From Phycisphaerae bacterium (GTDB taxonomy: Bacteria; Planctomycetota; Phycisphaerae; Sedimentisphaerales; Anaerohalosphaeraceae): a stretch of 64,000 bases of DNA. Shown here in pieces: positions 3,306 through 49,369 of the stretch. The translations under genes were made by a program, and so were the position numbers. The notes beneath the pieces were generated by a model that had not been told where the DNA came from, searched no databases, and saw nothing but the letters and a program-made list of their open reading frames with translations. How positions within the stretch are numbered: the first letter of the stretch is position 1; each line of letters opens with the position of its first letter. The stretch lies in NCBI GenBank assembly GCA_018052735.1, contig JAGPMT010000004.1, positions 96,558 through 160,557 on the forward strand. Reading direction: 5' to 3'.

Positions 3306-3323
3306 TTTGAATACAAACATGCC

Positions 3324-3354
3324 AAGAGCCGGTTAGCAGCCGGCTCTTTTTTTT
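3324..3354. terminator. Bidirectional intrinsic terminator between convergent abfA and larB
   Basis: AAGAGCCGG (3324-3332) pairs with CCGGCTCTT (3340-3348) and is followed by a T8 run. Confidence 0.65.
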
Positions 3355-3369
3355 GGCAAGATATTTCAG

Positions 3370-4146: not shown

Positions 4147-4162
4147 TGGATTTTTTGTACTG

Positions 4163-6124: not shown

Positions 6125-6155
6125 CTTATACTCCTGGACAATTGGGTTCCGATTT

Positions 6156-7328: not shown

Positions 7329-8516
7329 ATGACAACACGGGAAAGCAACAAGAACGTCTTCTTTGAGCTAATTCAAACAGAAGAAGGCCTTGCAAAACTG
7401 ATCGGACTGATTAAATGCGTCCATACTGTAGCATTGGATACCGAGGCCGACAGTTTTCATCACTATCGGCCCAAGGTTTGCCTGATACAACTTAGCTTTA
7501 ACGGATATACAGCAATTGTTGATCCGCTGGCGGGGGTGTCATTAAAGCCGTTTCTTGAGGAGCTGGCAGCAAAAGAGCTGGTGATTCACGATGCCGGCTA
7601 CGACCTGCGGATACTTAAGGGCGATTTCAATTTTGTGCCTCAAAACGGCATTTTCGATACCATGCTGGCTGCAGCACTGACAGGAATGGCAAATGTTGGG
7701 CTGTCCAGCGTGCTTCAAGAAGTACTGCAGATACAGATAGCTAAGCATAATCAGAAGGCAGACTGGTCGATGCGTCCCCTGCCGGACTATTTGCTCCGCT
7801 ATGCGGCGGAAGATACCTGCTATTTAATGCAAATCCGAGACAATCTCGAGTCACGTCTAAACGAGCTTGGCCGTCTGGATTGGCATCGGGAATCCTGCCG
7901 GCAGGCTGTTCGGAGTGCTATCGCCGCAAAGGAAACTCCAGATATAGATAACCTGTGGCGAATCAAGGGAAGCGGTATTCTGACAGACCGTCAAATGGCT
8001 TTTCTCCGCGAGATATGGCATTGGCGGCACAGCATTGCCAAACGTACCAATGTAGCGCCGTTTATGATTTGCCGCAATGAGGATGTGGTTAAATTAGCGA
8101 TTTGGGCCAGCCACCACCGAAAACCAGTCGAACCAGATGCCCAACTGCCGATACGATGCAAGGCATCATACCGAAATGCACTGCTGACAGCACTTCAAAA
8201 AGCGCATTGCCTCCCGAAAGACCAGTGGCCCAGTCTGCCGCCGTCCGACCCGTCAAAACGGCTGCCGGATTCTGTTCGCAAGATTGTGAATATCTTAAAA
8301 ACCGAGTGCGAAACAATCGCTAAGAAAAACGGACTGCCTTTGCAGTGGATAGCTTCCCGGGCGGCCCTGACGGAAATTGTTCTCAAGCAGGCAACAAGTC
8401 TCGAACAAATTCAGAAAGAACAGATTCTTTTAAATTGGCAGGCCAAGCTTATACTGCCGGCAATTTCCAAGGTGCTTGCAGAGGGCGGGCAAACAGATCA
8501 TCGCTTGTCCGAATGA
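7329..8516 (+). CDS. rnd: Ribonuclease D-like 3'-5' exonuclease with HRDC domain
   Basis: DEDDy motifs (VALDTEADSF; HDAGYDLRIL; YAAEDTCYL) followed by an HRDC-like segment (QMAFLREIWHWRHSIAKRTNVAPFMI). Confidence 0.75.
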   Translation: MTTRESNKNVFFELIQTEEGLAKLIGLIKCVHTVALDTEADSFHHYRPKVCLIQLSFNGYTAIVDPLAGVSLKPFLEELAAKELVIHDAGYDLRILKGDFNFVPQNGIFDTMLAAALTGMANVGLSSVLQEVLQIQIAKHNQKADWSMRPLPDYLLRYAAEDTCYLMQIRDNLESRLNELGRLDWHRESCRQAVRSAIAAKETPDIDNLWRIKGSGILTDRQMAFLREIWHWRHSIAKRTNVAPFMICRNEDVVKLAIWASHHRKPVEPDAQLPIRCKASYRNALLTALQKAHCLPKDQWPSLPPSDPSKRLPDSVRKIVNILKTECETIAKKNGLPLQWIASRAALTEIVLKQATSLEQIQKEQILLNWQAKLILPAISKVLAEGGQTDHRLSE

Positions 8517-9463
8517 CGGGCCCATTTATTCTTCAGAAGCATCCATCCCTGCAGAGTGATACTTTTGCATATTCGGGGCAGTGAAAATCGTAACGGGGTT
8601 TGGACAGCAGGCACAAAATCAGGGCATATCGGCCCATCAAAGGTATCACCTGTAATTTCAAGAGTACTGTCTAAAGTATATCCCATTTGTTCAGCAGTCT
8701 GCAGGAGCGGGAGATCTTTTGGATTAAAGCCCACCAGCTGGCAGCAGATTCGTTCACAAGCAGCAGGATTGCGGCTGGCAATCAAATATCCTATCTGACG
8801 CGGCGAACCATTAATCGGCCCTTGCCCCTCCATGCCGACAATACCGTCAATCAGATTCAAAACCGGATTGAGACGCTGGAATATACCAATAATAAGCCGG
8901 CAAAAAGACTCTACCCTGTCACCGCGGGCAAAGTGCCACCATGCCTTTTCCTTGCCGCCCAGCCCAGCAACGCAGCCGAACATATTCTTAAATGCAAATG
9001 TGGCTGTCAGCTGCTGATGGGTCTTCAATTTAGGGAGATTGATAATGGCATCCGCTTCCAAAGCTGTTCGGCTGATTCGGACAACAGAATCCTCAATTTG
9101 AATGGGAACCGGATTATTTAACTGGACAATATCGACCCCTAAATGTTTTAAACGCTTATCCACACCCAGCGCTTTCAAGCAGGCCCAGACATTTCCCCAA
9201 GCAGGGGAATCTCCTACAAGCGGTTTGCCGCCGGCATCCTTCACGCATCGGGCTGCCGCACAAATTACTTCCGGATGCGTTTGTGCGGGGATTTCAGGGC
9301 TATAGGGGACAATTAAATTGGGCTTAATCAAAACCCGCTGGTTTCTGCCGAAAAATGCATCTACACCCCCCAGCAGCTCAAACTGCCTGCATACGGCATT
9401 ATAAACTTGTTGAGCATCATAAGACTGACACCGCTGGAGGGCAACGAGGGATGTCTGATTCAT
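8498..9463 (-). CDS. DUF362 domain protein
   Basis: 321 aa with family-typical stretches VLIKPNL, INLPKLKTHQQLTATFAFKNMFG and IDGIVGMEGQGP. Its 3' end overlaps rnd convergently by 19 nt. Confidence 0.6.
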   Translation of the reverse strand: MNQTSLVALQRCQSYDAQQVYNAVCRQFELLGGVDAFFGRNQRVLIKPNLIVPYSPEIPAQTHPEVICAAARCVKDAGGKPLVGDSPAWGNVWACLKALGVDKRLKHLGVDIVQLNNPVPIQIEDSVVRISRTALEADAIINLPKLKTHQQLTATFAFKNMFGCVAGLGGKEKAWWHFARGDRVESFCRLIIGIFQRLNPVLNLIDGIVGMEGQGPINGSPRQIGYLIASRNPAACERICCQLVGFNPKDLPLLQTAEQMGYTLDSTLEITGDTFDGPICPDFVPAVQTPLRFSLPRICKSITLQGWMLLKNKWARHSDKR

Positions 9464-12166: not shown

Positions 12167-13546
12167 ATGCCAAAAGCTTCAATACTTATTGCCGACGACG
12201 ATGCCATCATTACCAATTCACTCTGTGAATTTCTGACAATGGAGGGATATCAAACTGCAGGTGTCGGAACTGTGGCACAGGCACGGCAGAAACTGAAAGA
12301 GCAGCCTTTTGCACTGGTTATTACGGATGTGAATCTGCCGGATGGGGATGGTTTCGACATTTTGGATATTGTTCGGGCCAATTACCCTCAAACTGTGGTT
12401 CTTTTAATTACCGGCTATGGTACGATTGAAAGCGCTGTTGAGGCCATAAAAAAGGGAGCCTATGATTATCTGACTAAGCCGATTGTGGATGATGACCTGC
12501 TGCTGGCGGTTGAGCGGGCAATTCGTCAGCAGTCTTTAATGAGTGAAAACCAGCAGCTTCGCCAGCAGATTGAAAACAAATACAGATTGAATAATATCAT
12601 CAGCCAGAATTATAAAATGTCGCGAATCTTCGAACTCATAGAAGCTGTCGCCGACAGTAAAACGACCATTTTGATGACAGGTGCTTCCGGCACCGGCAAA
12701 TCGCTGCTGGCCAAAGCCATTCATTTCCGCTCACTCCGCCGCGACCAGCCGTTTGTTGAAGTAAGCTGCGGGGCTCTACCTGAAACGCTGCTGGAGAGCG
12801 AACTGTTCGGGCATGTAAAAGGGGCGTTTACCGGCGCTATCAGCGACAAGGAAGGAAAATTTTTGGCTGCCAACGGCGGTACGATTTTTTTGGATGAAAT
12901 TTCCTCGGCTTCGCCCGCGATGCAGGTAAAACTGCTTCGCGTGCTTCAAGAGCGTCAATTCGAGCCGGTCGGCAGCAACCGCACTATAACGGTAGACACA
13001 CGGGTTATTTTGGCCTCTAACAGGGATTTGGCTGAGGAAGTGAAACAAGGCCGATTTCGAGAAGATTTGTATTACCGGATTAATGTTGTCGCCATCAACC
13101 TCCCGCCGCTGGCCGAACGGATAGGCGATGTGCCGCTGCTGGCTGACCACTTTCTCAAACACTTCTGCCTTGTTCACAACCGCCGCAAGTCAGGTCTGAC
13201 TGACCAAGCCCTTCATTGCCTGCAGAGTTATCACTGGCCGGGAAATGTGCGGGAACTGGAGAACGTTATAGAACGGGCTGTCCTATTAAGCAAAGGACCG
13301 CTGATTGATGTTGAAGACCTGCCGCAAAATGTGGTGCAAAATAGTCATCGTTTAGGGAATTACACGCATCAGAGCTTAAAAGAAGCTCTCGAAGGACCTG
13401 AGCGTGCTATTATTCGAGCTGCGCTGGAAGCCAACAACTGGAATCGGCAGGAAACAGCTAAAGCCCTTGATATCAACCGTACGACACTATACAAAAAAAT
13501 GAAACGCTACGGTCTCGAAGAAGAAGCGCAGCGCATAGGATTGTAA
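12167..13546 (+). CDS. Sigma54-dependent response regulator (REC - AAA+ - Fis-type HTH; NtrC family)
   Basis: REC domain (ILIADDD..VITDVNLPDGDG), Walker A GASGTGKS, the GAFTGA sigma54-contact motif, and C-terminal HTH NWNRQETAKALDINRTTLYKKMKRYGL. It starts 2 nt after the kinase stop. Confidence 0.9.
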   Translation: MPKASILIADDDAIITNSLCEFLTMEGYQTAGVGTVAQARQKLKEQPFALVITDVNLPDGDGFDILDIVRANYPQTVVLLITGYGTIESAVEAIKKGAYDYLTKPIVDDDLLLAVERAIRQQSLMSENQQLRQQIENKYRLNNIISQNYKMSRIFELIEAVADSKTTILMTGASGTGKSLLAKAIHFRSLRRDQPFVEVSCGALPETLLESELFGHVKGAFTGAISDKEGKFLAANGGTIFLDEISSASPAMQVKLLRVLQERQFEPVGSNRTITVDTRVILASNRDLAEEVKQGRFREDLYYRINVVAINLPPLAERIGDVPLLADHFLKHFCLVHNRRKSGLTDQALHCLQSYHWPGNVRELENVIERAVLLSKGPLIDVEDLPQNVVQNSHRLGNYTHQSLKEALEGPERAIIRAALEANNWNRQETAKALDINRTTLYKKMKRYGLEEEAQRIGL

Positions 13547-14094: not shown

Positions 14095-14165
14095 TTTTGC
14101 TTTATTAAGAACATTAGATATATTAACAGGGGAAAATAGTATGAATCTTTATTAAGGTGTGTCTT

Positions 14166-16082
14166 ATGTCTCAAAAAAAGATTCTTCTGGTACAGATTGT
14201 ATGTTTATTTCTGGTTCTTGATATTTCTTGTGTGTGTTTGTCTGCTGAAATCAATCCCTATGGAATCTGTGCTCATGTTTCCCGCCCCAGTGATCACAAT
14301 CTGGCAGAACAAGAATTTGAACTGATGCGCCAAGCGGGTATTTATTGGGTACGGACTGATTTTGATTGGACTACCGTACAGCAGCAACAGGATGGGCCGT
14401 GGGATTACTCTGTGCTGGATGCAACAGTGAATAAGGCCGAGCAGGCGGGCATACAAATCCTGCCGATTTTAGCTTATGACACGCCGTGGGCGAGGCCGGC
14501 CTATAAACATTTAGATAAATGGATAGAGTATGTTCGCAACACAGTGAGCCGCTACCACCGGCAGCTCCGTTATTGGGAGATCTGGAACGAGCCGGATTTG
14601 GAGCAGTTTTGGAAAGATAAGCCCAATCCTGCAGACTATACTTCCCTGCTGAAAGCTGCATATCAGGAAATCAAAAAAATCGATCCGGAATTAAAGGTTC
14701 TGCTGGGGGGATTGTCAGGCATTCCTTATGAATATATTGAAGGCATCTATCGGGCCGGCGGGAAAGATTTTTTTGACATTATGGCAGTTCATCCCTATCG
14801 ATATCCAGATGCGCCTGAACTAAACTCCCTTAGAAATGATTTGGATAAACTGCGTCAATTGATGAGCCGGTTTGGGGATGCAGATAAGCCTATCTGGATA
14901 ACAGAAATCGGCTGGCCGACACATCAAAATGGAGTTCCTCTTCTGGATGATATTATCCGGTGCGCGCTGAATTATCTGGAACCCAGTCGTAAAAACTGGA
15001 CATTGGCAGTATTAAGTATTCCGGAATATCCGCCGCGATATTCGTATTCGGATGAACGCTTACAGGGAATGCTGCCGGGAGGCGGGCGTATTGTTCATTT
15101 GAACATTGAAACCATAAACTTTTTAAATCCCCAGATACATAACGCCCTTCTGATGCCGCCCGATGAGGCATTCCCTGCCGACTGCTTTGATATTATTGAA
15201 GACTATGTCCGCAAAGGCGGTATTATACTCTTTACACAAGGTGTGCCCCTTTATTACACCATCCGCCAAGACAGTCAAGGAAATTGGACTCGGAATAATG
15301 CAGACTCATCCTATCGGAAACGACTTCATATCGGTTGGGAAGCATGGTGGACCCGCCCCGGCGTCCCGCGGCAGATTTCAACATTATTAGTACCAATAGA
15401 TTTCAGAACCCAAGTACACCTGCCCGGCACCCAAATAACCGCTGAACGATTTCTAACTGATTCTGAGCTGAAGACAGGGGATAAATTTATACCTTTGCTG
15501 GAGGCTGCCGAGGGTGACTATAAAGGCAGTGCAGCGGCAGTTTTTGATTTAGATAGCGACTTAAAAGGCGCTGTTATTGTTTCGGCTTTGATTCAAGACC
15601 TTCGCGGCATTTCGGAAGAGCAGCAAGCCGCTATTCTGCCGCGTGCACTGCTGGCCGCATTGCACAGCGGGGCAGAATGCGTATTCTGGTACAATTTCAG
15701 GGCTTTTGAAAACAATCCCTATTATAATGAAGATCATTTCGGCATCATTCACAAAGATTTGCGTCCAAAGCCTGCGTATTGGGGGATACAATCCCTGACT
15801 CGTGCTCGACCGGCCGGCTCAAAACCGCTGATGGAGAATTGGCAAACTGAAGACTTATTTTATCCCGGCTGGAAACGACCTGATGGGCAGAACGGCTATG
15901 CCGTATGGACTACGGGAAAACCTCGTTATGCGGGATTTCTTGCCGAGGGAAAGATTTCCGGCATGTTCGACAATTCAGGATCGCCTCTTGCGGTTGAGCA
16001 GTCTAATAATATGATTCGCCTTTTTGTAACTGAAACGCCCCTTTATTTGATTGGCCCCGAGAAACTTTTACCAGCCCAGTAA
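14166..16082 (+). CDS. Secreted clan GH-A (TIM-barrel) glycoside hydrolase, GH5/GH39-like, with a ~350-aa C-terminal region of unknown function
   Basis: Signal peptide MSQKKILLVQIVCLFLVLDISCVCLSA. YWEIWNEPD (acid/base NEP motif) and WITEIGWPT (nucleophile Glu). The family assignment is tentative. Confidence 0.65.
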   Translation: MSQKKILLVQIVCLFLVLDISCVCLSAEINPYGICAHVSRPSDHNLAEQEFELMRQAGIYWVRTDFDWTTVQQQQDGPWDYSVLDATVNKAEQAGIQILPILAYDTPWARPAYKHLDKWIEYVRNTVSRYHRQLRYWEIWNEPDLEQFWKDKPNPADYTSLLKAAYQEIKKIDPELKVLLGGLSGIPYEYIEGIYRAGGKDFFDIMAVHPYRYPDAPELNSLRNDLDKLRQLMSRFGDADKPIWITEIGWPTHQNGVPLLDDIIRCALNYLEPSRKNWTLAVLSIPEYPPRYSYSDERLQGMLPGGGRIVHLNIETINFLNPQIHNALLMPPDEAFPADCFDIIEDYVRKGGIILFTQGVPLYYTIRQDSQGNWTRNNADSSYRKRLHIGWEAWWTRPGVPRQISTLLVPIDFRTQVHLPGTQITAERFLTDSELKTGDKFIPLLEAAEGDYKGSAAAVFDLDSDLKGAVIVSALIQDLRGISEEQQAAILPRALLAALHSGAECVFWYNFRAFENNPYYNEDHFGIIHKDLRPKPAYWGIQSLTRARPAGSKPLMENWQTEDLFYPGWKRPDGQNGYAVWTTGKPRYAGFLAEGKISGMFDNSGSPLAVEQSNNMIRLFVTETPLYLIGPEKLLPAQ

Positions 16083-37978: not shown

Positions 37979-38407
37979 CTATGTCTTTGAAAATAAATGA
38001 GTTACTGTTTTTTTTACCACAAGCTGTTCTCTGTGATAAGCATCGTATCGGCTGTCAGTAGCAATACCAATTACCTCGTAAACTTTCTGGATTTCATTTT
38101 GCGATATAAGGGCAATTGAACAACGAATTTGTACAGGGGATTCATCCACCGTTAAAATCACTGTTTTTTCTAAATCATTCAGTTTGGATTGATGAACAGA
38201 CGCCCAAGTCAAACCGCTCCTGCAGGCATCTTTGGCGTGCTGCTGGAGCTGTTCCATTCGAACCTGATAGCCCAGAATTTTGGAATTTGCCGAAAAAATC
38301 GCCATAGCCATCCCCATCAGGGGGATTAGAACAAAGACAATCATTAAGATAAAACCACTATTTCGCTTCGTATTCATAAGGCCTTTCATTGCTTTGCCGC
38401 TTGGCAC
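37979..38407 (-). CDS. Small N-terminally anchored protein, PilX/GspK-like minor pseudopilin candidate
   Basis: Last gene of the operon. RNSGFILMIVFVLIPLMGMAMAIF resembles PilX_N/GspK anchors, which have no Glu+5. The start is ambiguous (GTG 38407, ATG 38389 or 38377). Confidence 0.45.
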   Translation of the reverse strand: MPSGKAMKGLMNTKRNSGFILMIVFVLIPLMGMAMAIFSANSKILGYQVRMEQLQQHAKDACRSGLTWASVHQSKLNDLEKTVILTVDESPVQIRCSIALISQNEIQKVYEVIGIATDSRYDAYHREQLVVKKTVTHLFSKT

Positions 38408-38424
38408 ATGGATTCAAATTATTA

Positions 38425-39231
38425 TCAATCAGGATCCTTGAAGTTAACCATCCATTCAGGCCATTGAGGCAGAGGTTTTGAAGTATCAAAACCTTTGTGC
38501 CATTTGAGCCGCCACAATTCCTTAGGGCTTACTGCAGAAACATCGCCATTAGGAAAAAGCACATTGAGCATGTTTCGATGCCAATCCACACAGAATCGCT
38601 GCATCTGGTTGTCAGGCTGGGCAGCCCACTGGGTATTTAATAAATAGTCTCTGCTTTGCGGAGGTACATCACTATCTTCAGGACGTCCGGTGTACCATAA
38701 GGCATCCAGAAACAGCGGGATTTTATAGCCGCCCACTACATCGATTGTCCGCCAGCTGTATTGGGTATCATGTCCTTCTGTCTGGATAACTTCAGGGGGA
38801 GTATCGCAGACCCACCCATTTAATCCATAGCTGCCTGAAAGAATAGTCTCTGCCTGTCCTGATTGGGAAGTGCTTTTTCCCGTTCCGTATGTTTGACGTG
38901 CAGCCGGACAAAACTTTAGTTTCGGGGTATCATAATACGCCTGCATCGCATACGGCCACAGGTCTGCACTGCGGCTTTGCAGTAAAACGCCGCTTGGATC
39001 AGCATAGGAATAATATCCTGCAAAAAAGCGGCCGTCGTGGTCTTCAGCGTACAAGGTAAACAATTCTCCCCACTGCGACAGATTAGCCATACATAGCACC
39101 TTTCTTGCCTGTTCTCTGGTTGCCCTGAGAGCCGGCAGAACAATCGACATCAGCATAGCAATGAGACTAATAACAACCAGCAGTTCGACTAAGGTAAAAG
39201 CAGTTTTCTTGCGATGGACATTTGCTTTCAT
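38425..39231 (-). CDS. Prepilin-type N-terminal cleavage/methylation protein, DUF1559-like (PVC-type major pseudopilin candidate)
   Basis: KKTAFTLVELLVVISLIAMLMSIVLPAL is a class III signal with Glu+5. The 268-aa size and Trp/Tyr-rich C-terminus are typical of planctomycete DUF1559 proteins. Confidence 0.8.
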   Translation of the reverse strand: MKANVHRKKTAFTLVELLVVISLIAMLMSIVLPALRATREQARKVLCMANLSQWGELFTLYAEDHDGRFFAGYYSYADPSGVLLQSRSADLWPYAMQAYYDTPKLKFCPAARQTYGTGKSTSQSGQAETILSGSYGLNGWVCDTPPEVIQTEGHDTQYSWRTIDVVGGYKIPLFLDALWYTGRPEDSDVPPQSRDYLLNTQWAAQPDNQMQRFCVDWHRNMLNVLFPNGDVSAVSPKELWRLKWHKGFDTSKPLPQWPEWMVNFKDPD

Positions 39232-39234
39232 GGC

Positions 39235-39729
39235 TTATATCTCTTTTTTGATAAAGTAAACATGTGTTTGTTGGAATTTCTGTTTGGATTGACCAAGGAT
39301 AGGCCGCTCGTTCCAGACAGCAAGTTCCAGAGCAATCGGCCCCTGTTCGTTTTTCCATACAATCCATTTAAGATACACATTCGGCAGTTCCCAGACATCT
39401 TCCTTTCGGTCCCTCGGCAGATTGGATTGACGAACGACTTTGCCGTCTGCCAAGCAATAACTCACTAATCCGCCGGCCTGCTTAAGAATAAGCAGATTGC
39501 TGCTGATGCGGGGATCCATCTCTATGACAGATAAATGATCCGAATGCTCCACATCCTCTTGAAGATGCTTGAGCATATGAAGCGTCTGCGTCAGTGTTTG
39601 ATAGTCCTTATAGCTTCGGGGCAGCTCTGAAATAATTTGGTGCATCGGTTTGGTCAGCAGTGCCATCATAACAACAAGTGCTGCCAGCACAGCCAGCATC
39701 TCCATTATTGTATAGCCCTTGAGCTTCAC
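39235..39729 (-). CDS. Prepilin-type pseudopilin
   Basis: GTG start overlapping the upstream stop (GTGA). MKLKGYTIMEMLAVLAALVVMMALL has G|YTIME with Glu+5. Confidence 0.65.
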   Translation of the reverse strand: MKLKGYTIMEMLAVLAALVVMMALLTKPMHQIISELPRSYKDYQTLTQTLHMLKHLQEDVEHSDHLSVIEMDPRISSNLLILKQAGGLVSYCLADGKVVRQSNLPRDRKEDVWELPNVYLKWIVWKNEQGPIALELAVWNERPILGQSKQKFQQTHVYFIKKEI

Positions 39730-40130
39730 TGTTTGAGCTCCTTTTGTGCTGCAACATAGCGGACCAAAGAGGTCTTAACCGTTTTCCTTCCTGATTTTGC
39801 AGACAGAGTCAGCTGAATTCTTTGAAGTCCCTGCCATTGCCCCTCCCCCTCAGTTATGTCAATACGGCAGTCAACATTCGGCCAGAGGCAGGCAAACGTA
39901 TCCTTGGCAATAGGTTTTCCAGTAATGTCCAAAGCATCCATCTGAGCCTGCCCAGCAGCAAGCAGCGTATGCCGAATCCAGCGCAGGTCATTTGCTTTCT
40001 TAAATGTACCCCCGACAGCTGCCAGAGCACCTATCAGGATTGTCAGCACACTGATAGCAGTTATCAATTCAAAGCTTAACACGCCAAACCGTTTTTTGTG
40101 CGCGTGAAATCTAAAACTAAAATTTTTCAT
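39726..40130 (-). CDS. Prepilin-type pseudopilin
   Basis: ATG 40130 overlaps the upstream stop (ATGA). KKRFGVLSFELITAISVLTILIGAL has G|VLSFE with Glu+5. The longer track ORF was rejected. Confidence 0.65.
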   Translation of the reverse strand: MKNFSFRFHAHKKRFGVLSFELITAISVLTILIGALAAVGGTFKKANDLRWIRHTLLAAGQAQMDALDITGKPIAKDTFACLWPNVDCRIDITEGEGQWQGLQRIQLTLSAKSGRKTVKTSLVRYVAAQKELKQ

Positions 40131-42800: not shown

Positions 42801-44033
42801 TTATTCCTTTGCATGGGACATAAGGCGGATTTTATATCGGAATGCCGACGGCATCGGCTCGCGGAGGACGTCGGCTGTCTGGAGGATATAGGCATCCTCC
42901 TGCCTGTAATAAATCAGAGGTCTTTTTGTTACAGGATCACAGGGCAGACGTATTTCTGTTATCTCACCCAGTGAGTTTGGTAAAAGGCCATCATAGACAG
43001 ATGCATAATATCGCAATCCCTCTATGCATTCGAGAACCGCAATAAAACGATCGATCTGCTGACACATTTGTTCGGCTTGTCTGCTCGTATAGACAGGCAG
43101 GGTTTCTTGTTGCGTCCTGATCTCATTGACATCCGGTATTGCTGCAGTGCCATCGGATAGCATCTCCATCATCGGATTAAACTGTCCGGTCTTCTTGTGA
43201 TCCGGTGCATCTGTACTGTCTGCGACTAAAAAAGGCATCGGCAAATCCTGCAGAGACCGATAGAGACTTGGTGCACCGGGAGTCTGAATCCATAGTTCGA
43301 TCTGGGTGAGGATTGCAGCAGCGTTGGCGGCTGCCATCATAGCCAGCTGGGGATTTGAGCGGCACACCATTTGCCGGCTGATGCTGAGGCCGGATTGAAG
43401 CCATTCTGCAGCGCTATTATACTCCCGCCGGACAATATGATACCGAGCTTTGAGGGCTGTCAGCCTGCCGTATCGATAAATATCCATAAGAAAATCAAGA
43501 TATTCCTTCGGCGTCAAAGTAAACAGCGCTGATTCATCCGGATGAACCGCCGATACCGGATAACTGTTTATAGGAGAGTGGCTGTCCAGAGCTGGCCACT
43601 CAATATTTCTGCAGATGCTTGCTTTCTGGAGCAGTTGAAGTCTATCACGACAGCGTTCAAGCTCAGTGGCTACGGCTTTTATGTCCAGTTGCTCAGCCGG
43701 CAGACTAATCTGCTGTTCTATCAATTCGAAGTCGGGATTTTTTTCCGGTTGATTCGGGTCTTCTGTGAATACCTGCAAATAAATCGGCAGCGAAGCTTCA
43801 TTTGTCAGATCGGTCTTTAACGGCAGCAGATGAAACATTGGCCGGCCGATGTCCGCCGCTGGCGTCAGTTCCACAATCTTCATTGCTGAAGCAGAAATCC
43901 ATTGCAGAATGTTTGGGTCTGCAGGTCCCCTTGCAGGTAATATATTGGGCTTCGGTTCTGCCTGATTGGGGGCATCGGCCAAACTGCAGACACAGACGGT
44001 TAAAATCAACAATAAAGAAAACGCTTTTCTCAT
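42801..44033 (-). CDS. Signal-peptide protein of unknown function embedded in the secretion/filament operon
   Basis: 410 aa. MRKAFSLLLILTVCVCSLADA signal. No domain recognised. 3-nt gap to gspF. Confidence 0.5.
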   Translation of the reverse strand: MRKAFSLLLILTVCVCSLADAPNQAEPKPNILPARGPADPNILQWISASAMKIVELTPAADIGRPMFHLLPLKTDLTNEASLPIYLQVFTEDPNQPEKNPDFELIEQQISLPAEQLDIKAVATELERCRDRLQLLQKASICRNIEWPALDSHSPINSYPVSAVHPDESALFTLTPKEYLDFLMDIYRYGRLTALKARYHIVRREYNSAAEWLQSGLSISRQMVCRSNPQLAMMAAANAAAILTQIELWIQTPGAPSLYRSLQDLPMPFLVADSTDAPDHKKTGQFNPMMEMLSDGTAAIPDVNEIRTQQETLPVYTSRQAEQMCQQIDRFIAVLECIEGLRYYASVYDGLLPNSLGEITEIRLPCDPVTKRPLIYYRQEDAYILQTADVLREPMPSAFRYKIRLMSHAKE

Positions 44034-44063: not shown

Positions 44064-45212
44064 TTACACTCCGCAGACACGGCGGATTTCATCTTCGGTG
44101 GTAATGCCGCGGCTGACCAGCCGCCGCCCATCGTGCATCAGATTCATATGACCGCGGGAAGCCAGAATGGCATCCAGCGTTTCCATATCGCTGCGGTCGA
44201 GAATCGCCTTGCGCAGCATCCCGTCAAGCTCTACCATCTCTGCAATCAGTACCCGCCCATGATAGCCTGTCATATGACACCGAGAGCAGCCGACCGCTTC
44301 GTAAGCTCCATCAGGCAACTGCCTTTTGCAGCTGTCGCATAGTTTTCTAACCAGACGCTGGTTAAGAACCGCATGTATACCCGATGTAACCTGATACGGT
44401 TCAATGCCCATCTCCAGCAGACGCAGCAGCGCACCGCTGCAGCTGCCGCTGTGCATCGTTGTCATCAGCAGGTGTCCGGTCAATCCGGCTTCTACTGCAA
44501 TTCTGGCCGTTTCAGCATCCCGAATCTCGCCTATCATCAGCACTTGCGGGTCTTGACGCAGCAGTGACCGCAGCGCCATGGGAAAGGACATCTGACCCTG
44601 CGGCTCTATTTGAACCTGAGTAATCCCTTCAATGGCCCGTTCGACAGGATCTTCCAATGTCACGATGCTGTTGCCGGGAAATTGCTGCAAAATATAGCGC
44701 AGCAATGCGGCCAAGGTTGTACTCTTGCCGCTTCCAGCCGGTCCAGTCAGCAGAAGAATACCCTGATTTCTGCAGGCAAACTTCCGCAAAGCGGATTCGA
44801 TGAAGTCATTAAGGCCAAGTTCATCCAGCTGCATCAGGCCGCGATTTTCATAAAAGATTCGAACCACTGCCCGCTGCCCATAAATCGTCGGGAAAACTGC
44901 CAGCCGCAAGTCTGTAATAGTCCCGGCTTCCGACGCCACAGAGATATCCTTGAATCCCTCCATCCGGCCTTCCTGAGGGATATCGTTGCGGTAGGTCAGA
45001 AGTCCGGCCAAGACTTTTAATCGGGCTATGATATTTTCACTGATTGCCTTTGGCAGCGTTTCCACCGTATTAAGCGACCCGTCAAGTCTGAATTTAACCA
45101 GCAATGACTTGGCAGTCGGTTCAAAGTGGACATCGCTTGCCCCATATCGAATGGCTTCCGAGAGAAGTTGTTCAACTAATGCTGCAACGTTAGGTTGTGA
45201 TGTCTGATTCAT
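44064..45212 (-). CDS. gspE: GspE/PilB-family secretion ATPase, short form
   Basis: ASDVHFEP, Walker A GPAGSGKST, TLEDPVE, Walker B VLMIGEIRD, His box TGHLLMTTMHS, and zinc motif CDSC...CSRC. ATG 45212 was preferred over GTG 45245 because of the predicted TSS. Confidence 0.85.
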   Translation of the reverse strand: MNQTSQPNVAALVEQLLSEAIRYGASDVHFEPTAKSLLVKFRLDGSLNTVETLPKAISENIIARLKVLAGLLTYRNDIPQEGRMEGFKDISVASEAGTITDLRLAVFPTIYGQRAVVRIFYENRGLMQLDELGLNDFIESALRKFACRNQGILLLTGPAGSGKSTTLAALLRYILQQFPGNSIVTLEDPVERAIEGITQVQIEPQGQMSFPMALRSLLRQDPQVLMIGEIRDAETARIAVEAGLTGHLLMTTMHSGSCSGALLRLLEMGIEPYQVTSGIHAVLNQRLVRKLCDSCKRQLPDGAYEAVGCSRCHMTGYHGRVLIAEMVELDGMLRKAILDRSDMETLDAILASRGHMNLMHDGRRLVSRGITTEDEIRRVCGV

Positions 45213-45252
45213 AAATTTTTTTCCAAAAATATATTGGGCTTTCACAGAAACG

Positions 45253-45279
45253 GACGACCAGCAAGTCCCTTTTGTTACC
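45253..45279 (-). promoter_or_regulatory. ECF-type promoter GGTAAC-N17-CGTC of the gspE operon
   Basis: Minus-strand GGTAAC at 45279-45274, a 17-nt spacer, and CGTC at 45256-45253. The pattern is identical to 48223-48249. It lies between the upstream terminator and the ATPase start. Confidence 0.55.
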
Positions 45280-45310
45280 TAAAAAGAGCAAAAAAATCCA
45301 ACTCCCATAA

Positions 45311-45352
45311 ACAAAAAGGCCTGTCGTCAAAAGAATCAAGGACAGGCCTTTT
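45311..45352 (-). terminator. Intrinsic terminator of the 887-aa beta-helix gene
   Basis: GGCCTGTC (45318-45325) pairs with GACAGGCC (45341-45348). On the minus strand it is followed by TTTTTGTTT. Confidence 0.7.
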
Positions 45353-45376
45353 ACGAAAAATCAGACTAATTTAAAG

Positions 45377-48040
45377 TTAAGGAGCCCGATACATAAGCTT
45401 GAATTTCGCACCATTTTTCGGATAAAGATAACGTACCGTTGAGGTGGCTTGCACCCATTGAAAATCAGCACCAACAGAAGTCTCTAAACCCACATCCAAG
45501 TCGCAGTTATAAGTGCCTCGAACAATCAGGCCGGTTCCGGAACTATACACTGTTCCATCAGCATTATAGGTTACCCATCCAAGGGTCAGCTTGTGGTTCT
45601 CTGAAGGAGTCAGCTGCTCGACGATAAACTTGCCATATCGCCCTGCCGAAGTTTTGTATACAAAATAGGTGCCGGGATTGAACTCCATACCATCGGAGCC
45701 GTAAATACTGGCGGTGCTCATCTGGCTTTCTAATGTTACTACGGCGGCCCGGTTTAGGGCGTCATAATCATGATATACGGCACGCCAAAAACGTGAAATA
45801 ACACTGAAATCTTCCAGCTTAACCCGGCTGTTCCAGTTGATGTCGCTGTTTTCACACCAATTGGGCATTATACAGTCGGACACCATCCAATTATCGGCCA
45901 CAACAGACAAATCGCCAAGATTTACTGAACGGTCATCATTTATATCACCCGGATACCGTTCAACATACTGACCTGTCAATTGCAGATTAAAGTCCCACGG
46001 GTGCGTATTCCAATTGGACCATAGTTCCATATTGGCCGGCTGGCCGGAGACATTCGCAGCATACCCTGTGCTGGACGGCCATGGATTATCCCATCGGCCG
46101 CAGACTCCAGAGGTAAACTCATTGTATTCACCCTGATAGAGATAGCAGGTGAAGATATATGTCTGGTTCGGTTCCAGCCAAAGATTGGAAAAAGGCATCA
46201 TCACCCAGCCGCCGGTAAAGTTTGACGGAACCAGCTTGACACTTGGGGCGAGTATGCTGCCATCTGCTTTCCGTGCATACATAATCAGATAAACCGCGTG
46301 GCCATGTCCTTCCGGGTTTGTGTAATAATCAAACGGATCATCAAACCGGAAACCTGCTGAGGTAACGTTGGCTGGACGGGTTAATGTGATACTCTGCCCA
46401 ACGCCGACGTTGCGTTTGTCGACCCGATCATCTCCGCCAAACCAGATAACCGCATTGTGCTGGTCATGAATCACATTGAAATCCAGCAGAACTCCAATCA
46501 TCGCCCACGTGGTCAAAGGACCATAGATATTGTTGGTTTCATAGGTTTCTTCAACTTCGCCTTCGGTATCCACCTGTGCATACATTCTTTTAATACCTTC
46601 GGTGGCATAGGTATAGGTTACCGTCATTGCATCTGAGGCACCTGCTGCCAAACTGGAGAATCTTTTCCATCGATCCCCTACGGTACCCGGACTGGGCAAA
46701 GAAGCTCGGTCGGCATACCAGTCCAGATAAAAAGACCCCGCATTGGTAGTACCCGCATTATGAATAGTTACGGTTACAGCAACCGGCTGGCCAACATGCG
46801 GAACTTTGGGATTGAGGCTAATAGAGGTAATCCGCAAATCGACGTTAATATACTCAAATTCATACGCTCCCATATCGATAGCGGCTATACTGTCCCCATT
46901 GCCATCCAGCGGACGGGGTTTACCATCCAAATCCTCGGCCGGAGCATCAAAATCGGACCCGGCATCAATGCAGGGGCTCGAGGCAGTCAAATGGTAATCA
47001 CCGCTGCCTGTAAACAGAGGATTAGCATTTATATTCCCCGTGCCGGCAAAACCGCCCTGAATATCGCAGTAGGAGGCAGTAGGGCCCGGACTGCTGTAAT
47101 AATCGACAATCTGATTGGGACTGTTGCCCCAGAAAATGCAATTTCTCAAGGTGGGACTGGATGTATTGGTATAAAGTGCCCCCCCGCCTGCTGCATACGC
47201 TGCCGTATTATCAGCAAAAGTGCAGTTGATAATGCTGGGCCAGGCCTGATGATAGGAAATCGCTCCTCCATAGGATGCTGAACTGTTGCTGACAAACAAG
47301 CAATTGATAATCGAGCCGTATGTTTGATAATCTCCTAAGATCGCCCCGCCTCCAAAGCCGCCTGCTGTAGAGGAGTTTGACTTGAAAATGCACTTTTCAA
47401 TCCGGGAATTTGTCTGCAACTGCCAAATGGCTCCGCCGTTATCAGCACTGTTGTCCTGAAACAGACACTCTTTAATCACCAGATTGGAACGGAGATCATA
47501 CACGGCACCGCCGACAACAGTGGCAACATTGTTGAGAAATCTGCAGTTTTGCAATGTTGTGCTGAAATCAAACCCCAGACAGCTGTAGGTTGGGCTTTCA
47601 ATATACAGCGCCCCGCCGCTCGAAGCAAGGCCGTTCTGAAATATAAAACCGTCAATGATGCTGTAGGAAGTAATCTTCATGCACCGTACAGAATTGCTAC
47701 CGTTGATAATTGTCGGATAAACGGCGGGATTGCGATCATCAAGTGTCGGTGACGCCATACCATTTGGAAAACCGCCATACATCACAACAACTTTGTTCAG
47801 TGTCAATTCGCTGGTTAGGTTGTACGTTCCGCTCTTTACCCAGATCTGGTCACTGGGAGCATAGCAAATCATATACAGCGGGCTTGCAGCAGCGATGGCA
47901 GCAGAAATCGAATTGAAAGCTGTTGGCCAGCTTTTGCCATCTCCTCCGGGCGCAACATCTGAATCAACATACCAAACAGCAGCAGAGAGACTCCCTGCTA
48001 AATAGAAAAAGAAAAGAAACAATACTGATTTGCCTTTCAT
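45377..48040 (-). CDS. Secreted right-handed beta-helix (Pmp/pectate-lyase-like repeats) - CARDB - dockerin-like protein
   Basis: Signal MKGKSVLFLFFFYLAGSLSA. Repeated GGA[IL]y...n..F.nN units (aa ~130-300). CARDB-like segment (aa ~400-510: PHVGQPVAVTVTIHNAGTTNAGSFYLDWY). Dockerin-like GDINDDRSVNLGDLSVVADNW (aa ~697-720). Confidence 0.75.
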   Translation of the reverse strand: MKGKSVLFLFFFYLAGSLSAAVWYVDSDVAPGGDGKSWPTAFNSISAAIAAASPLYMICYAPSDQIWVKSGTYNLTSELTLNKVVVMYGGFPNGMASPTLDDRNPAVYPTIINGSNSVRCMKITSYSIIDGFIFQNGLASSGGALYIESPTYSCLGFDFSTTLQNCRFLNNVATVVGGAVYDLRSNLVIKECLFQDNSADNGGAIWQLQTNSRIEKCIFKSNSSTAGGFGGGAILGDYQTYGSIINCLFVSNSSASYGGAISYHQAWPSIINCTFADNTAAYAAGGGALYTNTSSPTLRNCIFWGNSPNQIVDYYSSPGPTASYCDIQGGFAGTGNINANPLFTGSGDYHLTASSPCIDAGSDFDAPAEDLDGKPRPLDGNGDSIAAIDMGAYEFEYINVDLRITSISLNPKVPHVGQPVAVTVTIHNAGTTNAGSFYLDWYADRASLPSPGTVGDRWKRFSSLAAGASDAMTVTYTYATEGIKRMYAQVDTEGEVEETYETNNIYGPLTTWAMIGVLLDFNVIHDQHNAVIWFGGDDRVDKRNVGVGQSITLTRPANVTSAGFRFDDPFDYYTNPEGHGHAVYLIMYARKADGSILAPSVKLVPSNFTGGWVMMPFSNLWLEPNQTYIFTCYLYQGEYNEFTSGVCGRWDNPWPSSTGYAANVSGQPANMELWSNWNTHPWDFNLQLTGQYVERYPGDINDDRSVNLGDLSVVADNWMVSDCIMPNWCENSDINWNSRVKLEDFSVISRFWRAVYHDYDALNRAAVVTLESQMSTASIYGSDGMEFNPGTYFVYKTSAGRYGKFIVEQLTPSENHKLTLGWVTYNADGTVYSSGTGLIVRGTYNCDLDVGLETSVGADFQWVQATSTVRYLYPKNGAKFKLMYRAP

Positions 48041-48222
48041 CTTTATACCCTCCTAAAAATGTATGCCATTGAATATTTATTCTGACATCTTTTTAGGCTT
48101 TGTCAAATAAAAAAAATGCAAAAAGAAAATAAAGATTAAACAATCATAAAACTGGCCTTGTATTCAGCCTTTATTATGTCTGTTATTTACAGAATTATTT
48201 TTTGTCTTTTTATCCAAAATCT

Positions 48223-48249
48223 GGTAACATATAGGAATGTAAAAGCGTC
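48223..48249 (+). promoter_or_regulatory. ECF-type autoregulatory promoter GGTAAC-N17-CGTC
   Basis: GGTAAC at 48223-48228, a 17-nt spacer, and CGTC at 48246-48249, just upstream of the sigma-factor gene. Confidence 0.55.
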
Positions 48250-48260
48250 TTTGATTCGAA

Positions 48261-48863
48261 ATGAGCGTGGACGCAGAAGAAGGGATAATGGCCATGAATC
48301 CAGCGACCTTGCGGCTGGCATTTGAGCTGACGGGTAGTACGGCTGCAGAAAAAAGCCAGATGTGGATATTATCTGCAATGCAGTACTATGGACCAGCTAT
48401 CGTCAGCATGCTGTGGCGGATTCTGGGCAGAGAAGAAGATGTTTGCGATGCCTATCAGGAAACTTTTCTTCATCTGGCCTATCTGCCTCAGCAGCAAAAA
48501 CCAGCCAACCTTCGTGCCTATCTGTTCCGTACGGCTTCCAATGTGGCCATATCCATGCTCCGCCGGAGGCAGATTGAAAAGAAATATCAGGAGCAGATTC
48601 AGCACAAAGCAATTCCGTCTTCTCCTGATCCTGCCGGTTTTTTGGATGCAATGGATCTTCAGCAGCAGCTTCGGGAAGCCATTGCTCATCTTCCGGACTA
48701 TTTGTCCGATGTTGTTGTGCTGCGGGACTTGGCCGAACTGCCATATCCGCAGGTGGCTAAAATTCTTGGAATAACAACGACAGCCGCCAGAGTTTACCGC
48801 CACAAAGCAGTCAAACTGCTGGCTCAGTGGATGTCAAAATTAGATAAGCGGGACGACTTATGA
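48261..48863 (+). CDS. ECF (sigma70 family group 4) RNA polymerase sigma factor
   Basis: Region 2 (DVCDAYQETFLHL..LRAYLFRTASNVAISMLRRR) and region 4 (LPYPQVAKILGITTTAARVYRHKAVKLL). The true start is probably ATG 48288, which has a GAAGGG RBS and fits the predicted TSS near 48256. Confidence 0.85.
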   Translation: MSVDAEEGIMAMNPATLRLAFELTGSTAAEKSQMWILSAMQYYGPAIVSMLWRILGREEDVCDAYQETFLHLAYLPQQQKPANLRAYLFRTASNVAISMLRRRQIEKKYQEQIQHKAIPSSPDPAGFLDAMDLQQQLREAIAHLPDYLSDVVVLRDLAELPYPQVAKILGITTTAARVYRHKAVKLLAQWMSKLDKRDDL

Positions 48864-49369
48864 AGACAATAAGATTAAACAATCTGTGCAGAGTTTTACA
48901 GCAGCGCAAAGTCGGTCTGTTTGATTCGTTCAGACAGCACGTGCAGCATCGCTTAATTGAACATATGGCAAATTGTCCGCGGTGCCGAAAACGCCTTGGT
49001 CTGGCCAGTCGGTTAGAAATCGCTTTGGCTATGATTAAATCCCAGCCCCATCATATTGATCTTTTACAACGGGCTAACACGCAAACATTAGCTGTATTTG
49101 CGCATGCACTTCGGTATGCTCCGAAATCACAAACATTGCGCATCAGCCGGCCAGAGCCAATTTGGGCAGTTAAAAACAGGTCCCTTATTGATCGTCTGCT
49201 GAATATTGCAGCGTGTCTTTTTGTTGTTCTGATGATGCGTTCGGGAATTTTTCATTCGCTGACCAGTTATAAAGAACAAAGTGAAGCCGTTATTCACAAC
49301 TATTACGCCCGCAATCTTGACAGCAATATGTTCAATGAAATCTTCCCCAATAACGACACGCTGGCGTGA
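48860..49369 (+). CDS. Anti-sigma factor, zinc-binding (ZAS) type, single-pass membrane protein
   Basis: Overlaps the sigma stop by 4 nt (ATGA). Has HMANCPRC (H-x3-C-x2-C), a TM segment LLNIAACLFVVLMM, and only a ~45-aa extracytoplasmic tail. Confidence 0.65.
   Translation: MKTIRLNNLCRVLQQRKVGLFDSFRQHVQHRLIEHMANCPRCRKRLGLASRLEIALAMIKSQPHHIDLLQRANTQTLAVFAHALRYAPKSQTLRISRPEPIWAVKNRSLIDRLLNIAACLFVVLMMRSGIFHSLTSYKEQSEAVIHNYYARNLDSNMFNEIFPNNDTLA

Follow-up and report, generated by a model that had tools for sequence, protein, structure and literature searches.

A shared ECF-type promoter motif precedes a sigma factor gene and a pilus-like operon in Phycisphaerae

ECF sigma factors are the bacterial regulators that are easiest to read from sequence, and outside the model phyla very few of them have been tied to a function. 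They usually autoregulate, and bipartite motifs upstream of their genes are an accepted route to the promoters that they recognize (PMC3817407, PMC7776599). Here, we consider a 64-kb stretch of DNA from a Phycisphaerae bacterium (the window), in which one bipartite motif, GGTAAC-N17-CGTC, lies in front of both an ECF sigma gene and a nearby GspE/GspF/pseudopilin operon. Are these two copies the promoters of a single circuit, in which the sigma factor drives its own synthesis and that of its neighbor? An earlier sequence-only reading of the window had proposed as much, with the ZAS anti-sigma/ECF pair as a signal-dependent switch.

Table 1. Coordinates, within the 64-kb window, of the features discussed in the text
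Feature	Position	Strand	Basis
Predicted autoregulatory ECF promoter, sigma/anti-sigma operon	48223..48249	+	Exact pattern match; best matrix site in window
Parts of the sigma promoter	-35 GGTAAC(ATA) 48223-48231; -10 (G)CGTC(TT) 48245-48251	+	
Predicted transcription start, sigma promoter	about 48255-48258	+	
T-rich tract upstream of sigma -35 (possible UP-element or bend)	48194..48213	+	Sequence
ECF (group 4) sigma factor, 191 aa from conserved start	48288..48863	+	Pfam Sigma70_r2, Sigma70_r4_2; NCBIfam TIGR02937
Putative membrane-anchored ZAS-type anti-sigma factor, 169 aa	48860..49369	+	ZAS motif and gene position
Secreted beta-helix/CARDB protein gene, 887 aa	45377..48040	-	Pfam Beta_helix, CARDB, Chlam_PMP; signal peptide
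Intrinsic terminator of the 887-aa gene	45313..45348	-	Hairpin 45318-45348, U-run 45313-45317
T-rich tract directly upstream of gspE -35	45281..45297	-	Sequence
Predicted ECF promoter, gspE operon	45253..45279	-	Exact pattern match
Parts of the gspE promoter	-35 GGTAAC 45279-45274; -10 CGTC 45256-45253	-	
Predicted transcription start, gspE promoter	about 45247-45244	-	
GspE/PilB-type assembly ATPase, 382 aa, core without N-terminal N1 domain	44064..45212	-	Pfam T2SSE 1e-102
Variable operon member, 410 aa, N-terminal signal peptide	42801..44033	-	Sequence
GspF/PilC-type platform protein, 399 aa	41598..42797	-	Pfam T2SSF, two stretches
Second, divergent GspF/PilC paralogue, 489 aa	40127..41596	-	Pfam T2SSF
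Four tightly packed prepilin-type (pseudopilin) genes	about 39726-40130, 39235-39729, 38425-39231, 37979-38407	-	N-terminal motifs

A pattern search of both strands of the window finds exactly two copies of GGTAAC-N17-CGTC, in the two places where the sequence-only reading had put them (Table 1). The plus-strand copy, which ends 38 nt before the conserved sigma start and 11 nt before an alternative ATG at 48261, has a score of 27.6 bits with a matrix built solely from other genomes. The minus-strand copy, which stops 40 nt short of the GspE ATG, sits just beyond the hairpin and U-run of the preceding gene, as that reading had placed it. Its score against the family matrix is 13.8 bits, versus a family median of 25.1, with only 2.4 bits contributed by the -10 block, whose flank reads GTCGTCCGT where the family form is tGCGTCTTA; it also starts 67 nt before its ATG, compared to about -82 to -120 in relatives. 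Because a site of at least 13.8 bits arises 0.46 times on average anywhere in a shuffled window, the significance of this copy rests on its position, its orientation and the stronger homologous sites in relatives. It is the only other site of at least 13.8 bits at spacer 16-17 in the 64 kb, and the matrix finds no further site at these spacers, including the region upstream of the 887-aa beta-helix gene, where the motif had already been reported as missing. Widening the spacer to 15-18 adds one weak match, inside an unrelated gene.

The gene assignments of the sequence-only reading are borne out. The sigma protein contains Sigma70_r2 (residues 41-104) and Sigma70_r4_2 (residues 135-187), and scores 71.5 bits against TIGR02937 (cut-off 42.9). 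Regions sigma-2 and sigma-4 stand alone, with neither sigma-3 nor sigma-1.1, within about 170-200 aa, which is the pattern that defines ECF factors. No NCBIfam equivalog model matches the protein, and among solved structures it is closest to M. tuberculosis SigE and B. subtilis SigW. Both ATG codons that had been offered as starts, 48261 and 48288, are possible in the reading frame, but a 26-sequence alignment has the family N-terminus MA(I/M)NP and the window protein begins MAMNP at 48288, which is thus probably the true start. The anti-sigma gene, which shares its first 4 nt with the end of the sigma gene, lies downstream of the sigma gene in 80/80 loci. Its ZAS motif, C-x24-H-x3-C-x2-C, is close to invariant, with C10 present in 77 of 81 orthologues and H35, C39 and C42 in all 81 each, and is followed by a single hydrophobic membrane helix at about 114-133, containing an invariant Cys119, and a tail of ~34 aa. 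Since no curated Pfam or NCBIfam model matches at E <= 0.01, the putative class assignment is based on the motif and the gene position.

What would such a sigma factor control? The operon on the minus strand comprises eight genes (45212-37979), and its matches to T2SSE, T2SSF (twice), N_methyl and the solved structures of PilF, GspE and PilC assign it to the type IV filament superfamily in the broad sense. The ATPase matches PilF, GspE and PilB only over their C-terminal ~380 residues, and scores 371 bits against NCBIfam GspE (equivalog cut-off 630), with its PilB match likewise under the cut-off. The 399-aa and 489-aa platform proteins score 220 and 90 bits, respectively, against NCBIfam GspF (cut-off 424), and are only 24% identical to each other; the second, which adjoins the first in nearly all loci, has a hydrophobic N-terminal extension of ~145 aa and matches PilC across residues 153-483. 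Pseudopilin gene order is conserved across loci, and the translations have G-x-(T/S)-x-x-E-type N-termini, with an N_methyl/prepilin motif match in the 268-aa protein and weak ComG-type matches in the 164-aa protein. The 410-aa protein, without a Pfam or NCBIfam match, is detectable in only a subset of loci. Compared with a type II secretion system, the operon falls short on two counts: both GspE and GspF fall under their equivalog cut-offs, and no GspD or GspC/L/M is found at the locus, nor as a conserved neighbor in the 80 loci. No GspD, GspC/L/M, PilMNOP or prepilin peptidase occurs in the cassette or among the annotated open reading frames of the window, which are all those of at least 230 aa in 34.8-56.9 kb plus ten elsewhere, and leave aside 14 of the 34 window frames of at least 230 aa, including one of 2152 aa; genes for the secretin and GspC/L/M could lie elsewhere in the genome.

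Every check proposed with the sequence-only reading that can be made by computation favors it, among them the comparison with relatives. We compared 80 species-representative genomes of Phycisphaerae (Sedimentisphaerales, Anaerohalosphaeraceae), each with an orthologous sigma factor. In 73/80 species the pattern TAAC-N16/17-[CT]GTC precedes the sigma gene, lying between -43 and -68 relative to the sigma start; before gspE it is present in 65/71 regions, rearranged loci included. The spacer on the sigma side is 16 nt in 62 sites and 17 nt in the other 11. Two details of the motif as originally described change at the level of the family: the family has (G/T)TAAC rather than strictly GGTAAC, and prefers 16 nt to 17. 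Conservation extends beyond the searched pattern, with a G two bases before TAAC (65/73 sigma sites, 48/65 gspE sites), a G before CGTC (53/73 and 48/65) and a TTA after CGTC in both sets of sites. The consensus common to the two promoters is G(G/T)TAAC...tGCGTCTTA, or, in its extended form, G(G/T)TAACATA...tGCGTCTTA. An unbiased count of 6-mers is topped by TAACAT, which occurs in 73/80 sequences versus 1.4 expected, and GCGTCT and GTCTTA are also among the top 6-mers. Family-wide, the sigma -35 box is preceded by three T-tracts in phase with one another (spaced about 10-11 nt, 70-84% T), and on the gspE side T reaches 75-84% at -9 to -5 relative to TAAC.

Is the motif specific to these two positions? 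A matrix scan of both strands of 2.3 Mb, which covers 20 kb per species around the locus and so speaks to specificity within that DNA rather than genome-wide, gives 151 matches, 140 of them at the two promoter positions. Four of the 11 matches elsewhere represent this divergent promoter at the ends of contigs, and the other seven compare with about eight expected by chance, so that within the DNA scanned the motif is uncommon and its placement non-random. Two loci held out of matrix training (L081 and L083) each have exactly two sites of at least 12 bits in 20 kb, both at the promoters. About 70 related species show this pairing of a common predicted promoter at the sigma gene and at the pilus-like operon. 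From one species to the next, changes in the two bases before TAAC at one promoter are not matched at the other, and hence provide no co-evolution signal tying the sites to one protein.

In about 65 of the 80 species, as in L083, the gspE-gspF-gspF'-pseudopilin genes are directly divergent from the sigma gene; roughly 120-300 nt lie between them, 165-260 in most cases. In these loci, about 36-50 bp separate the two -35 boxes, which lie in inverted orientation amid phased A/T tracts. Judged from this comparison, the ancestral layout is one in which the sigma/anti-sigma genes and the gspE operon stand back-to-back around a single divergent promoter region of ~200 bp. The 887-aa gene lies between the two promoters only in the window and in its sister genome (L081) among the loci compared, and is on these grounds a recent lineage-specific insertion with its own predicted promoter and terminator. 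A sigma-70-like candidate promoter, TTGACA-16-CAGAAT at 48106-48079, precedes it. The terminator hairpin (dG -27.1 kcal/mol, z = -5.06, with 0/200 shuffles equally stable) is conserved in the sister genome, and is predicted to insulate the gspE promoter from the inserted gene. The site stays with gspE not only across this 2.9-kb insertion, where the sister genome has GATAAC-N16-CGTC, but also when gspE is in tandem orientation (L027), 9 kb away (L014) or separated by an inserted pseudopilin gene (L035). That the site travels with gspE through these rearrangements favors two independent promoters over one palindromic operator.

How else might the two copies be explained? Coincidence or a compositional artefact could be suspected only on the ground that the sequence-only reading chose the pattern after the data had been seen. 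We regard that account as refuted: the exact pattern is expected 0.01 times per window in 100 dinucleotide-preserving shuffles, none of which had two matches, and, besides the 6-mer enrichment and the specificity in 2.3 Mb, the motif is found again, in both places, in dozens of species whose intergenic regions are otherwise dissimilar. The conserved blocks might instead be operators of a regulator that is not a sigma factor, such as a dimer bridging the inverted GGTAAC half-sites, and the inverted -35 pair in its phased, apparently bent A/T setting would suit such a protein. We judge this very improbable, considering that every site has two parts at a fixed spacing of 16-17 nt and always faces its gene at promoter distance, that the pair persists where the copies lie 2.9-9 kb apart or have come to stand in tandem, as a bridging operator would not, and that the sigma and anti-sigma genes are the only regulators conserved in the cassette.

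A true ECF promoter need not be read by the adjacent sigma factor, which might itself be a target of a paralogous ECF cascade or of a lineage-specific general sigma. Cascades in which one ECF sigma transcribes the promoter of another have been proposed (PMC3817407), and the phylum Planctomycetes has been characterized as rich in ECF factors (PMC7826278). However, the motif accompanies the sigma gene in nearly all species and is otherwise essentially absent from the flanking DNA, as expected of a promoter dedicated to autoregulation. This pattern excludes a general housekeeping promoter; reading by another sigma seems unlikely to us. A fourth account concerns this genome alone: the gspE copy may be a decaying remnant, with the operon run by read-through or another promoter while the sigma copy still functions. 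The low score, the lost -10 flanks and the short 5' leader all speak for decay, but the TAAC and CGTC cores and their spacing are intact both here and in the sister genome (18.3 bits), a strong terminator separates the 887-aa gene from the site, and no sigma-70-like promoter was found on the gspE strand in the gap after that gene. Decay thus appears improbable as well.

We consider it likely, instead, that both motif copies are promoters read by the neighboring ECF sigma factor, one for its own operon and one for the gspE operon, with the ZAS anti-sigma factor holding the sigma. In the resting state, the membrane-anchored anti-sigma would bind and inhibit the sigma factor, until some envelope or redox signal inactivates it. 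The freed sigma, together with core RNA polymerase, would then bind both sites and initiate transcription there: the plus-strand copy would drive the sigma/anti-sigma operon, providing positive autoregulation, and the minus-strand copy the eight-gene operon. The genes for sigma, anti-sigma and the type-IV-filament-like machine form one conserved Phycisphaerae cassette, and each side would have kept its own promoter on insertion of the 887-aa gene. It is very probable that the sigma factor serves the neighboring pilus/secretion-like machine as a dedicated switch, much as the sequence-only reading had imagined, although other ECF sigmas of the same genomes could have overlapping specificity. A more speculative variant, which we think doubtful, is that the cassette is a distinct, self-regulating Phycisphaerae-specific filament machine whose anti-sigma monitors the machine itself (for instance the inner-membrane pseudopilin pool or the assembly state) rather than general stress. 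Sensing would occur through the membrane helix, with its invariant Cys119, and the very short periplasmic tail; if so, the sigma/anti-sigma pair would act as a feedback control built into filament assembly.

An ECF sigma factor that autoregulates and drives an adjacent operon is expected, textbook behavior, and no general concept is altered. The value of the locus lies in a specific, conserved prediction, simple to approach by experiment, for abundant, poorly studied planctomycetes of anoxic sediments. It singles out a sigma factor, an anti-sigma factor, two promoters and a definite target, the last an unusual pilus/secretion-like machine. The consensus G(G/T)TAAC-N16/17-CGTCTTA offers a means of delimiting the regulon in complete genomes, and, with the sigma factor, could serve as an orthogonal sigma/promoter pair in synthetic biology.

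The B. subtilis sigma-X promoter is TGTAAC-N17-CGAC and that of sigma-W is TGAAAC-N16-CGTA. The Phycisphaerae sites resemble promoters of the sigma-X/sigma-W/sigma-M type, and the models that Rhodius et al. 2013 (PMC3817407) give for ECF promoters, in the AAC of the -35 box, the 16-17 nt spacer and the CGT-type -10, which the sequence-only reading had named as the hallmark of many ECF groups, and also in standing before a sigma/anti-sigma operon and a small set of target operons. They differ from both in an extended consensus with phased upstream T-tracts that is specific to the Phycisphaerae family. The anti-sigma shares with RsrA, ChrR, RslA and RsiW the N-terminal C/H-x(23-26)-H-x3-C-x2-C motif (here C10-H35-C39-C42) and, with known ZAS proteins, translational coupling to the sigma gene. 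A single membrane helix is also found in RsiW and RslA, whereas the extracytoplasmic tail of only about 34 residues and the invariant Cys within the helix set the Phycisphaerae protein apart.

ECF sigma factors have been linked to envelope-spanning nanomachines before. HrpL/ECF32 is dedicated to type III secretion genes (PMC7826278), EcfK is associated with type VI secretion (PMC13147305), and, in the account given in PMC7826278, Kadowaki 2016 describes an ECF sigma that acts below a two-component system in the control of type IX secretion genes. Here, too, the sigma is genetically linked to such a machine and is its predicted driver, but the target is a type-IV-filament/T2SS-like core and the predicted control is by a ZAS anti-sigma rather than by a two-component system or kinase. 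The main text of the Casas-Pastor 2021 ECF classification describes no ECF group with a type II secretion or pilus context, and a literature search found no paper linking an ECF sigma to a GspE/GspF operon in Planctomycetota; as the sequence-only reading had supposed, this sigma family and its wiring appear to be uncharacterized so far. Like type II secretion systems and type IV pili, the cassette combines a GspE/PilB ATPase, a GspF/PilC platform and several prepilin-type proteins in one operon. Unlike them, it has no secretin, GspC/L/M, PilMNOP or prepilin peptidase of its own, its ATPase is without N1, all of its NCBIfam scores are far under the equivalog cut-offs, and it carries two full-length platform paralogues side by side, one with an extra N-terminal membrane domain.

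The pattern GGTAAC-N17-CGTC occurs just twice in the 64-kb window when both strands are searched, at 48223-48249 (+) and 45253-45279 (-), exactly where the sequence-only reading had placed it. Dinucleotide-preserving shuffles of the window gave a mean of 0.01 matches, and two matches were found in 0 of 100 shuffles. An ORF with possible starts at 48261 or 48288 follows the plus copy, and the ATG (45212) of a GspE-like gene is found 40 nt past the end of the minus copy. The two copies had been interpreted as ECF promoters of the sigma gene and the gspE operon, a proposal that comparative genomics supports through the conservation of the motif, its specificity and the arrangement of rearranged loci. 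We consider it very probable that both are cognate ECF promoters.

Looking for conserved bipartite motifs ahead of orthologous ECF genes is an established method, and the autoregulation of most ECF sigmas is an established premise (PMC3817407; PMC7776599). An alignment of the sigma protein was used to collect 80 loci, with flanks of up to 10 kb on both sides, from species-representative genomes. The strict pattern proved too narrow for these relatives and failed to pick up most orthologues, in which GTTAAC, GATAAC, ATTAAC or TGTC is used instead, and it was replaced by the relaxed core TAAC-N16/17-[CT]GTC and then by a two-block position-weight matrix. Conservation in orthologous loci, which the sequence-only reading had named as a check, was indeed found: the relaxed core precedes the sigma gene in 73 of 80 upstream regions and gspE in 65 of 71, each time in the orientation of the gene that follows. 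The conserved block in the 110 nt 5' of the sigma genes reads (G/T)(G/T/A)TAACATA, 12-13 nt, GCGTC(T/A)TA. A G two bases before TAAC, a position unconstrained by the search, is present in 65/73 sigma and 48/65 gspE sites; a G also precedes CGTC in 53 and 48 of these sites, respectively, and TTA follows CGTC in both sets. TAAC is followed by ATA in the sigma promoters, whereas the gspE promoters have (A/G)TTT. Spacers in the sigma promoters are 16 nt (62 sites) or 17 nt (11 sites), and those in the gspE promoters are likewise 16 nt (37) or 17 nt (28). When 6-mers were counted in the sigma upstream regions, TAACAT ranked first (73/80 sequences, with 1.4 expected), and GTCTTA, GCGTCT and CGTCTT were near the top in both the sigma and gspE sets. 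A shared reader would gain support if, species by species, the dinucleotide ahead of TAAC changed in step at the sigma and gspE promoters, but it does not (GA occurs with GC, and GT with GG, GA or AT).

Three T-tracts (70-84% T), in a phase of ~10-11 nt, cover roughly positions -30 to -3, counted from the sigma -35 element, across the 80 loci, and thereby fill the stretch that separates the back-to-back promoters. Ahead of the gspE -35 element the relatives have a single T-tract, and T-tracts are present upstream of both sites in the window. Such an arrangement suggests intrinsic DNA bending or an UP-element function common to both promoters.

Could the motif simply be a general promoter of these organisms, or be common and randomly placed, the latter being among the things that the sequence-only reading had listed as counting against it? 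The matrix was trained on 138 sites, all from genomes other than that of the window. When 2.3 Mb (the 80 loci, both strands) were scanned, 151 sites scored at least 13.8 bits and 140 of these were at the two promoter positions, a concentration which argues that the motif is not a general promoter. Four of the other 11 sites are the same divergent promoter at contig ends or with a differing neighbor, and for the remaining seven, shuffled sequence (0.46 sites per 128 kb) predicts ~8 by chance. These seven matches (in L003, L060, L010, L001, L042, L077 and L029), some of them inside or antisense to genes, were accordingly set aside as chance-level, and a window match at 2404 (-) with an 18-nt spacer was grouped with them. 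In two loci held out of the training, those of the sister genome (L081) and the next relative (L083), exactly two sites in 20 kb reach 12 bits, both at the promoters. In the window itself, with spacers of 16-17 nt, scores of at least 13.3 bits occur only at 48221 (+), with 27.6 bits, and 45281 (-), with 13.8 bits. The same scan upheld the earlier negative observation that the 887-aa gene lying between the sigma gene and gspE has no ECF motif.

The promoter model can be told apart from an operator model by rearranged loci, in which the site remains with gspE. The site is kept despite a 2.9-kb insertion in the window and the sister genome, when gspE lies in tandem after the anti-sigma gene (L027), when gspE is 9 kb away (L014), and when a pseudopilin gene has been inserted (L035). 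Each site therefore appears, from these arrangements, to be a self-sufficient bipartite element facing its gene.

In about 65 of the 80 loci, the gspE-gspF-gspF'-pseudopilin operon is directly divergent from the sigma gene, with an intergenic distance of ~120-300 nt, mostly 165-260. The genes flanking the cassette in the window (Rrf2, porin, lipase, DUF3352 and DUF2339) are not conserved across the related loci, and the cassette is thus self-contained. The 887-aa gene occupies the sigma/gspE gap only in the window and its closest relative, the sister genome (sigma 82% identical), while the next relative (sigma 73%) keeps the ancestral arrangement; the ancestral divergent promoter region was therefore split by a recent insertion. 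The gspE site of the window is a weak matrix match, with a -10 block of just 2.4 bits and a leader shorter than in the relatives, and that of the sister genome scores somewhat higher (18.3 bits). Perhaps the gspE promoter of the window was remodelled or weakened after the insertion. A GTTAT at ~48181, considered as a leftover of the ancestral gspE promoter beside the sigma promoter, is unproven in that role because it has no CGTC partner and is not conserved in the sister genome. An Rfam search of 44800-48700 for riboswitches or leader RNAs in the 5' leaders gave no match at E <= 1. The secreted 887-aa protein, encoded beside a secretion-like operon, could be a substrate, although its gene has no ECF motif. 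A 265-aa prepilin-type gene at 8485-9282 (+) of L035 is likewise found between gspE and the sigma gene, and insertions seem to recur in the divergent promoter region.

Features of the sigma/gspE region of the window
Feature	Position (nt)	Strand	Remarks
Anti-sigma	48860-49369	+	169 aa; 4-nt overlap with sigma stop; contains HMANCPRC
Sigma-70-like promoter of 887-aa gene	48106-48079	-	TTGACA-16-CAGAAT; came with insertion
Secreted beta-helix/CARDB gene, 887 aa	45377-48040	-	signal peptide; weak dockerin-like match
Strong terminator of 887-aa gene	45313-45348	-	hairpin and U-run upstream of minus motif copy, -27 kcal/mol, z = -5.06 (folding); came with insertion
GspE/PilB-type ATPase, 382 aa	operon from 45212	-	first listed gene of eight
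Signal-peptide protein, 410 aa	42801-44033	-	no family match; between gspE and gspF
GspF, 399 aa	41598-42797	-	platform protein
GspF paralogue, 489 aa	40127-41596	-	~145-aa N-terminal hydrophobic (membrane) extension
Four prepilin-type proteins	operon end to 37979	-	one of 268 aa; complete the eight-gene operon

The product of the plus-strand ORF matches Sigma70_r2 and Sigma70_r4_2 in Pfam and exceeds the cut-off of TIGR02937 in NCBIfam. Considering that an alignment of 26 homologues begins at MA(I/M)NP, 48288 is the likely start of the sigma gene, which ends at 48863. The protein is identical to entries of metagenome-assembled genomes labelled Phycisphaerae bacterium and Anaerohalosphaeraceae bacterium; there are >1000 homologues, those with names being from Planctomycetota, Phycisphaerae and Anaerohalosphaera, and among solved structures SigE of M. 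tuberculosis and SigW of B. subtilis are the closest. The downstream gene had been called a ZAS anti-sigma, and both its motif and its position bear this out, even though searches of curated models (Pfam, NCBIfam) gave no family match. C10, H35, C39 and C42 show little or no variation among 81 orthologues and form the ZAS signature C-x24-H-x3-C-x2-C. A single hydrophobic membrane helix at about residues 114-133 contains an invariant Cys119 (within AAC), and the predicted periplasmic tail of ~34 residues, with a conserved YY at 148-149, offers hardly any space for a sensor domain of the usual kind.

The gspE operon consists of eight minus-strand genes with gaps or overlaps of no more than ~30 nt. 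Two full-length GspF/PilC platform paralogues, 24% identical, adjoin each other, and almost all of the 80 related loci keep the pair; no account of a twin-platform arrangement like this was found. The 410-aa signal-peptide protein is probably an accessory component. Its gene is fast-evolving and was detectable in just a subset of related loci. With an ATPase, platform protein and prepilins, the predicted machine falls within a broadly defined type IV filament superfamily. The cassette and the annotated ORFs of the window (20 of the 34 ORFs of at least 230 aa; the other 14 include one of 2152 aa) yielded no secretin, GspC/L/M or prepilin peptidase. The machine cannot be classed as a type II secretion system, because secretin and GspC/L/M are missing from this set, the ATPase is without an N1 domain (PDB matches are confined to the C-terminal core), NCBIfam scores of the machine proteins are far under equivalog cut-offs, and there are two platform paralogues.

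The most likely reading of the cassette is a standard ECF circuit, in which the membrane-bound ZAS anti-sigma would sequester the sigma factor until a signal releases it, and the freed sigma would transcribe both the sigma/anti-sigma operon and the gspE operon, each from a promoter of the common consensus. With AAC in the -35 element, CGT in the -10 element and a 16-17 nt spacer, the sites described here resemble the sigma-X and sigma-W promoters of B. subtilis. For Planctomycetota/Phycisphaerae, a literature search found no ECF sigma linked to an operon for GspE/GspF, type II secretion or type IV pili. The main text of the ECF re-classification paper gives a type III secretion context for ECF32 and no type II secretion or pilus context (PMC7826278), and for secretion machines of types III, VI and IX there are known examples of a dedicated ECF sigma (PMC7826278; PMC13147305). 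The present sigma/anti-sigma/promoter set with a defined target is thus well supported, appears to be previously undescribed, and involves no new principle.

A few minor observations concern other genes. A motif-like ATAACAT-N-TTCGTCTGA (14-18 bits) is found in L042 at ~2010-2042 (-), in L077 at ~1026 (-) and in L029 at ~1979 (-), ~100 nt 5' of a gene for a 607-aa multi-pass membrane protein and a few kb past the pseudopilin genes. Given its recurrence in three genomes, a count within chance, this gene could be an extra regulon member. In the window, a sigma-54 activator (response regulator) is encoded at 12167-13546, and 1746-6271 and 14157-16082 hold genes for two GH51-type alpha-L-arabinofuranosidases and a further glycoside hydrolase, which point to a lifestyle of polysaccharide degradation; these genes are unrelated to the promoter finding.
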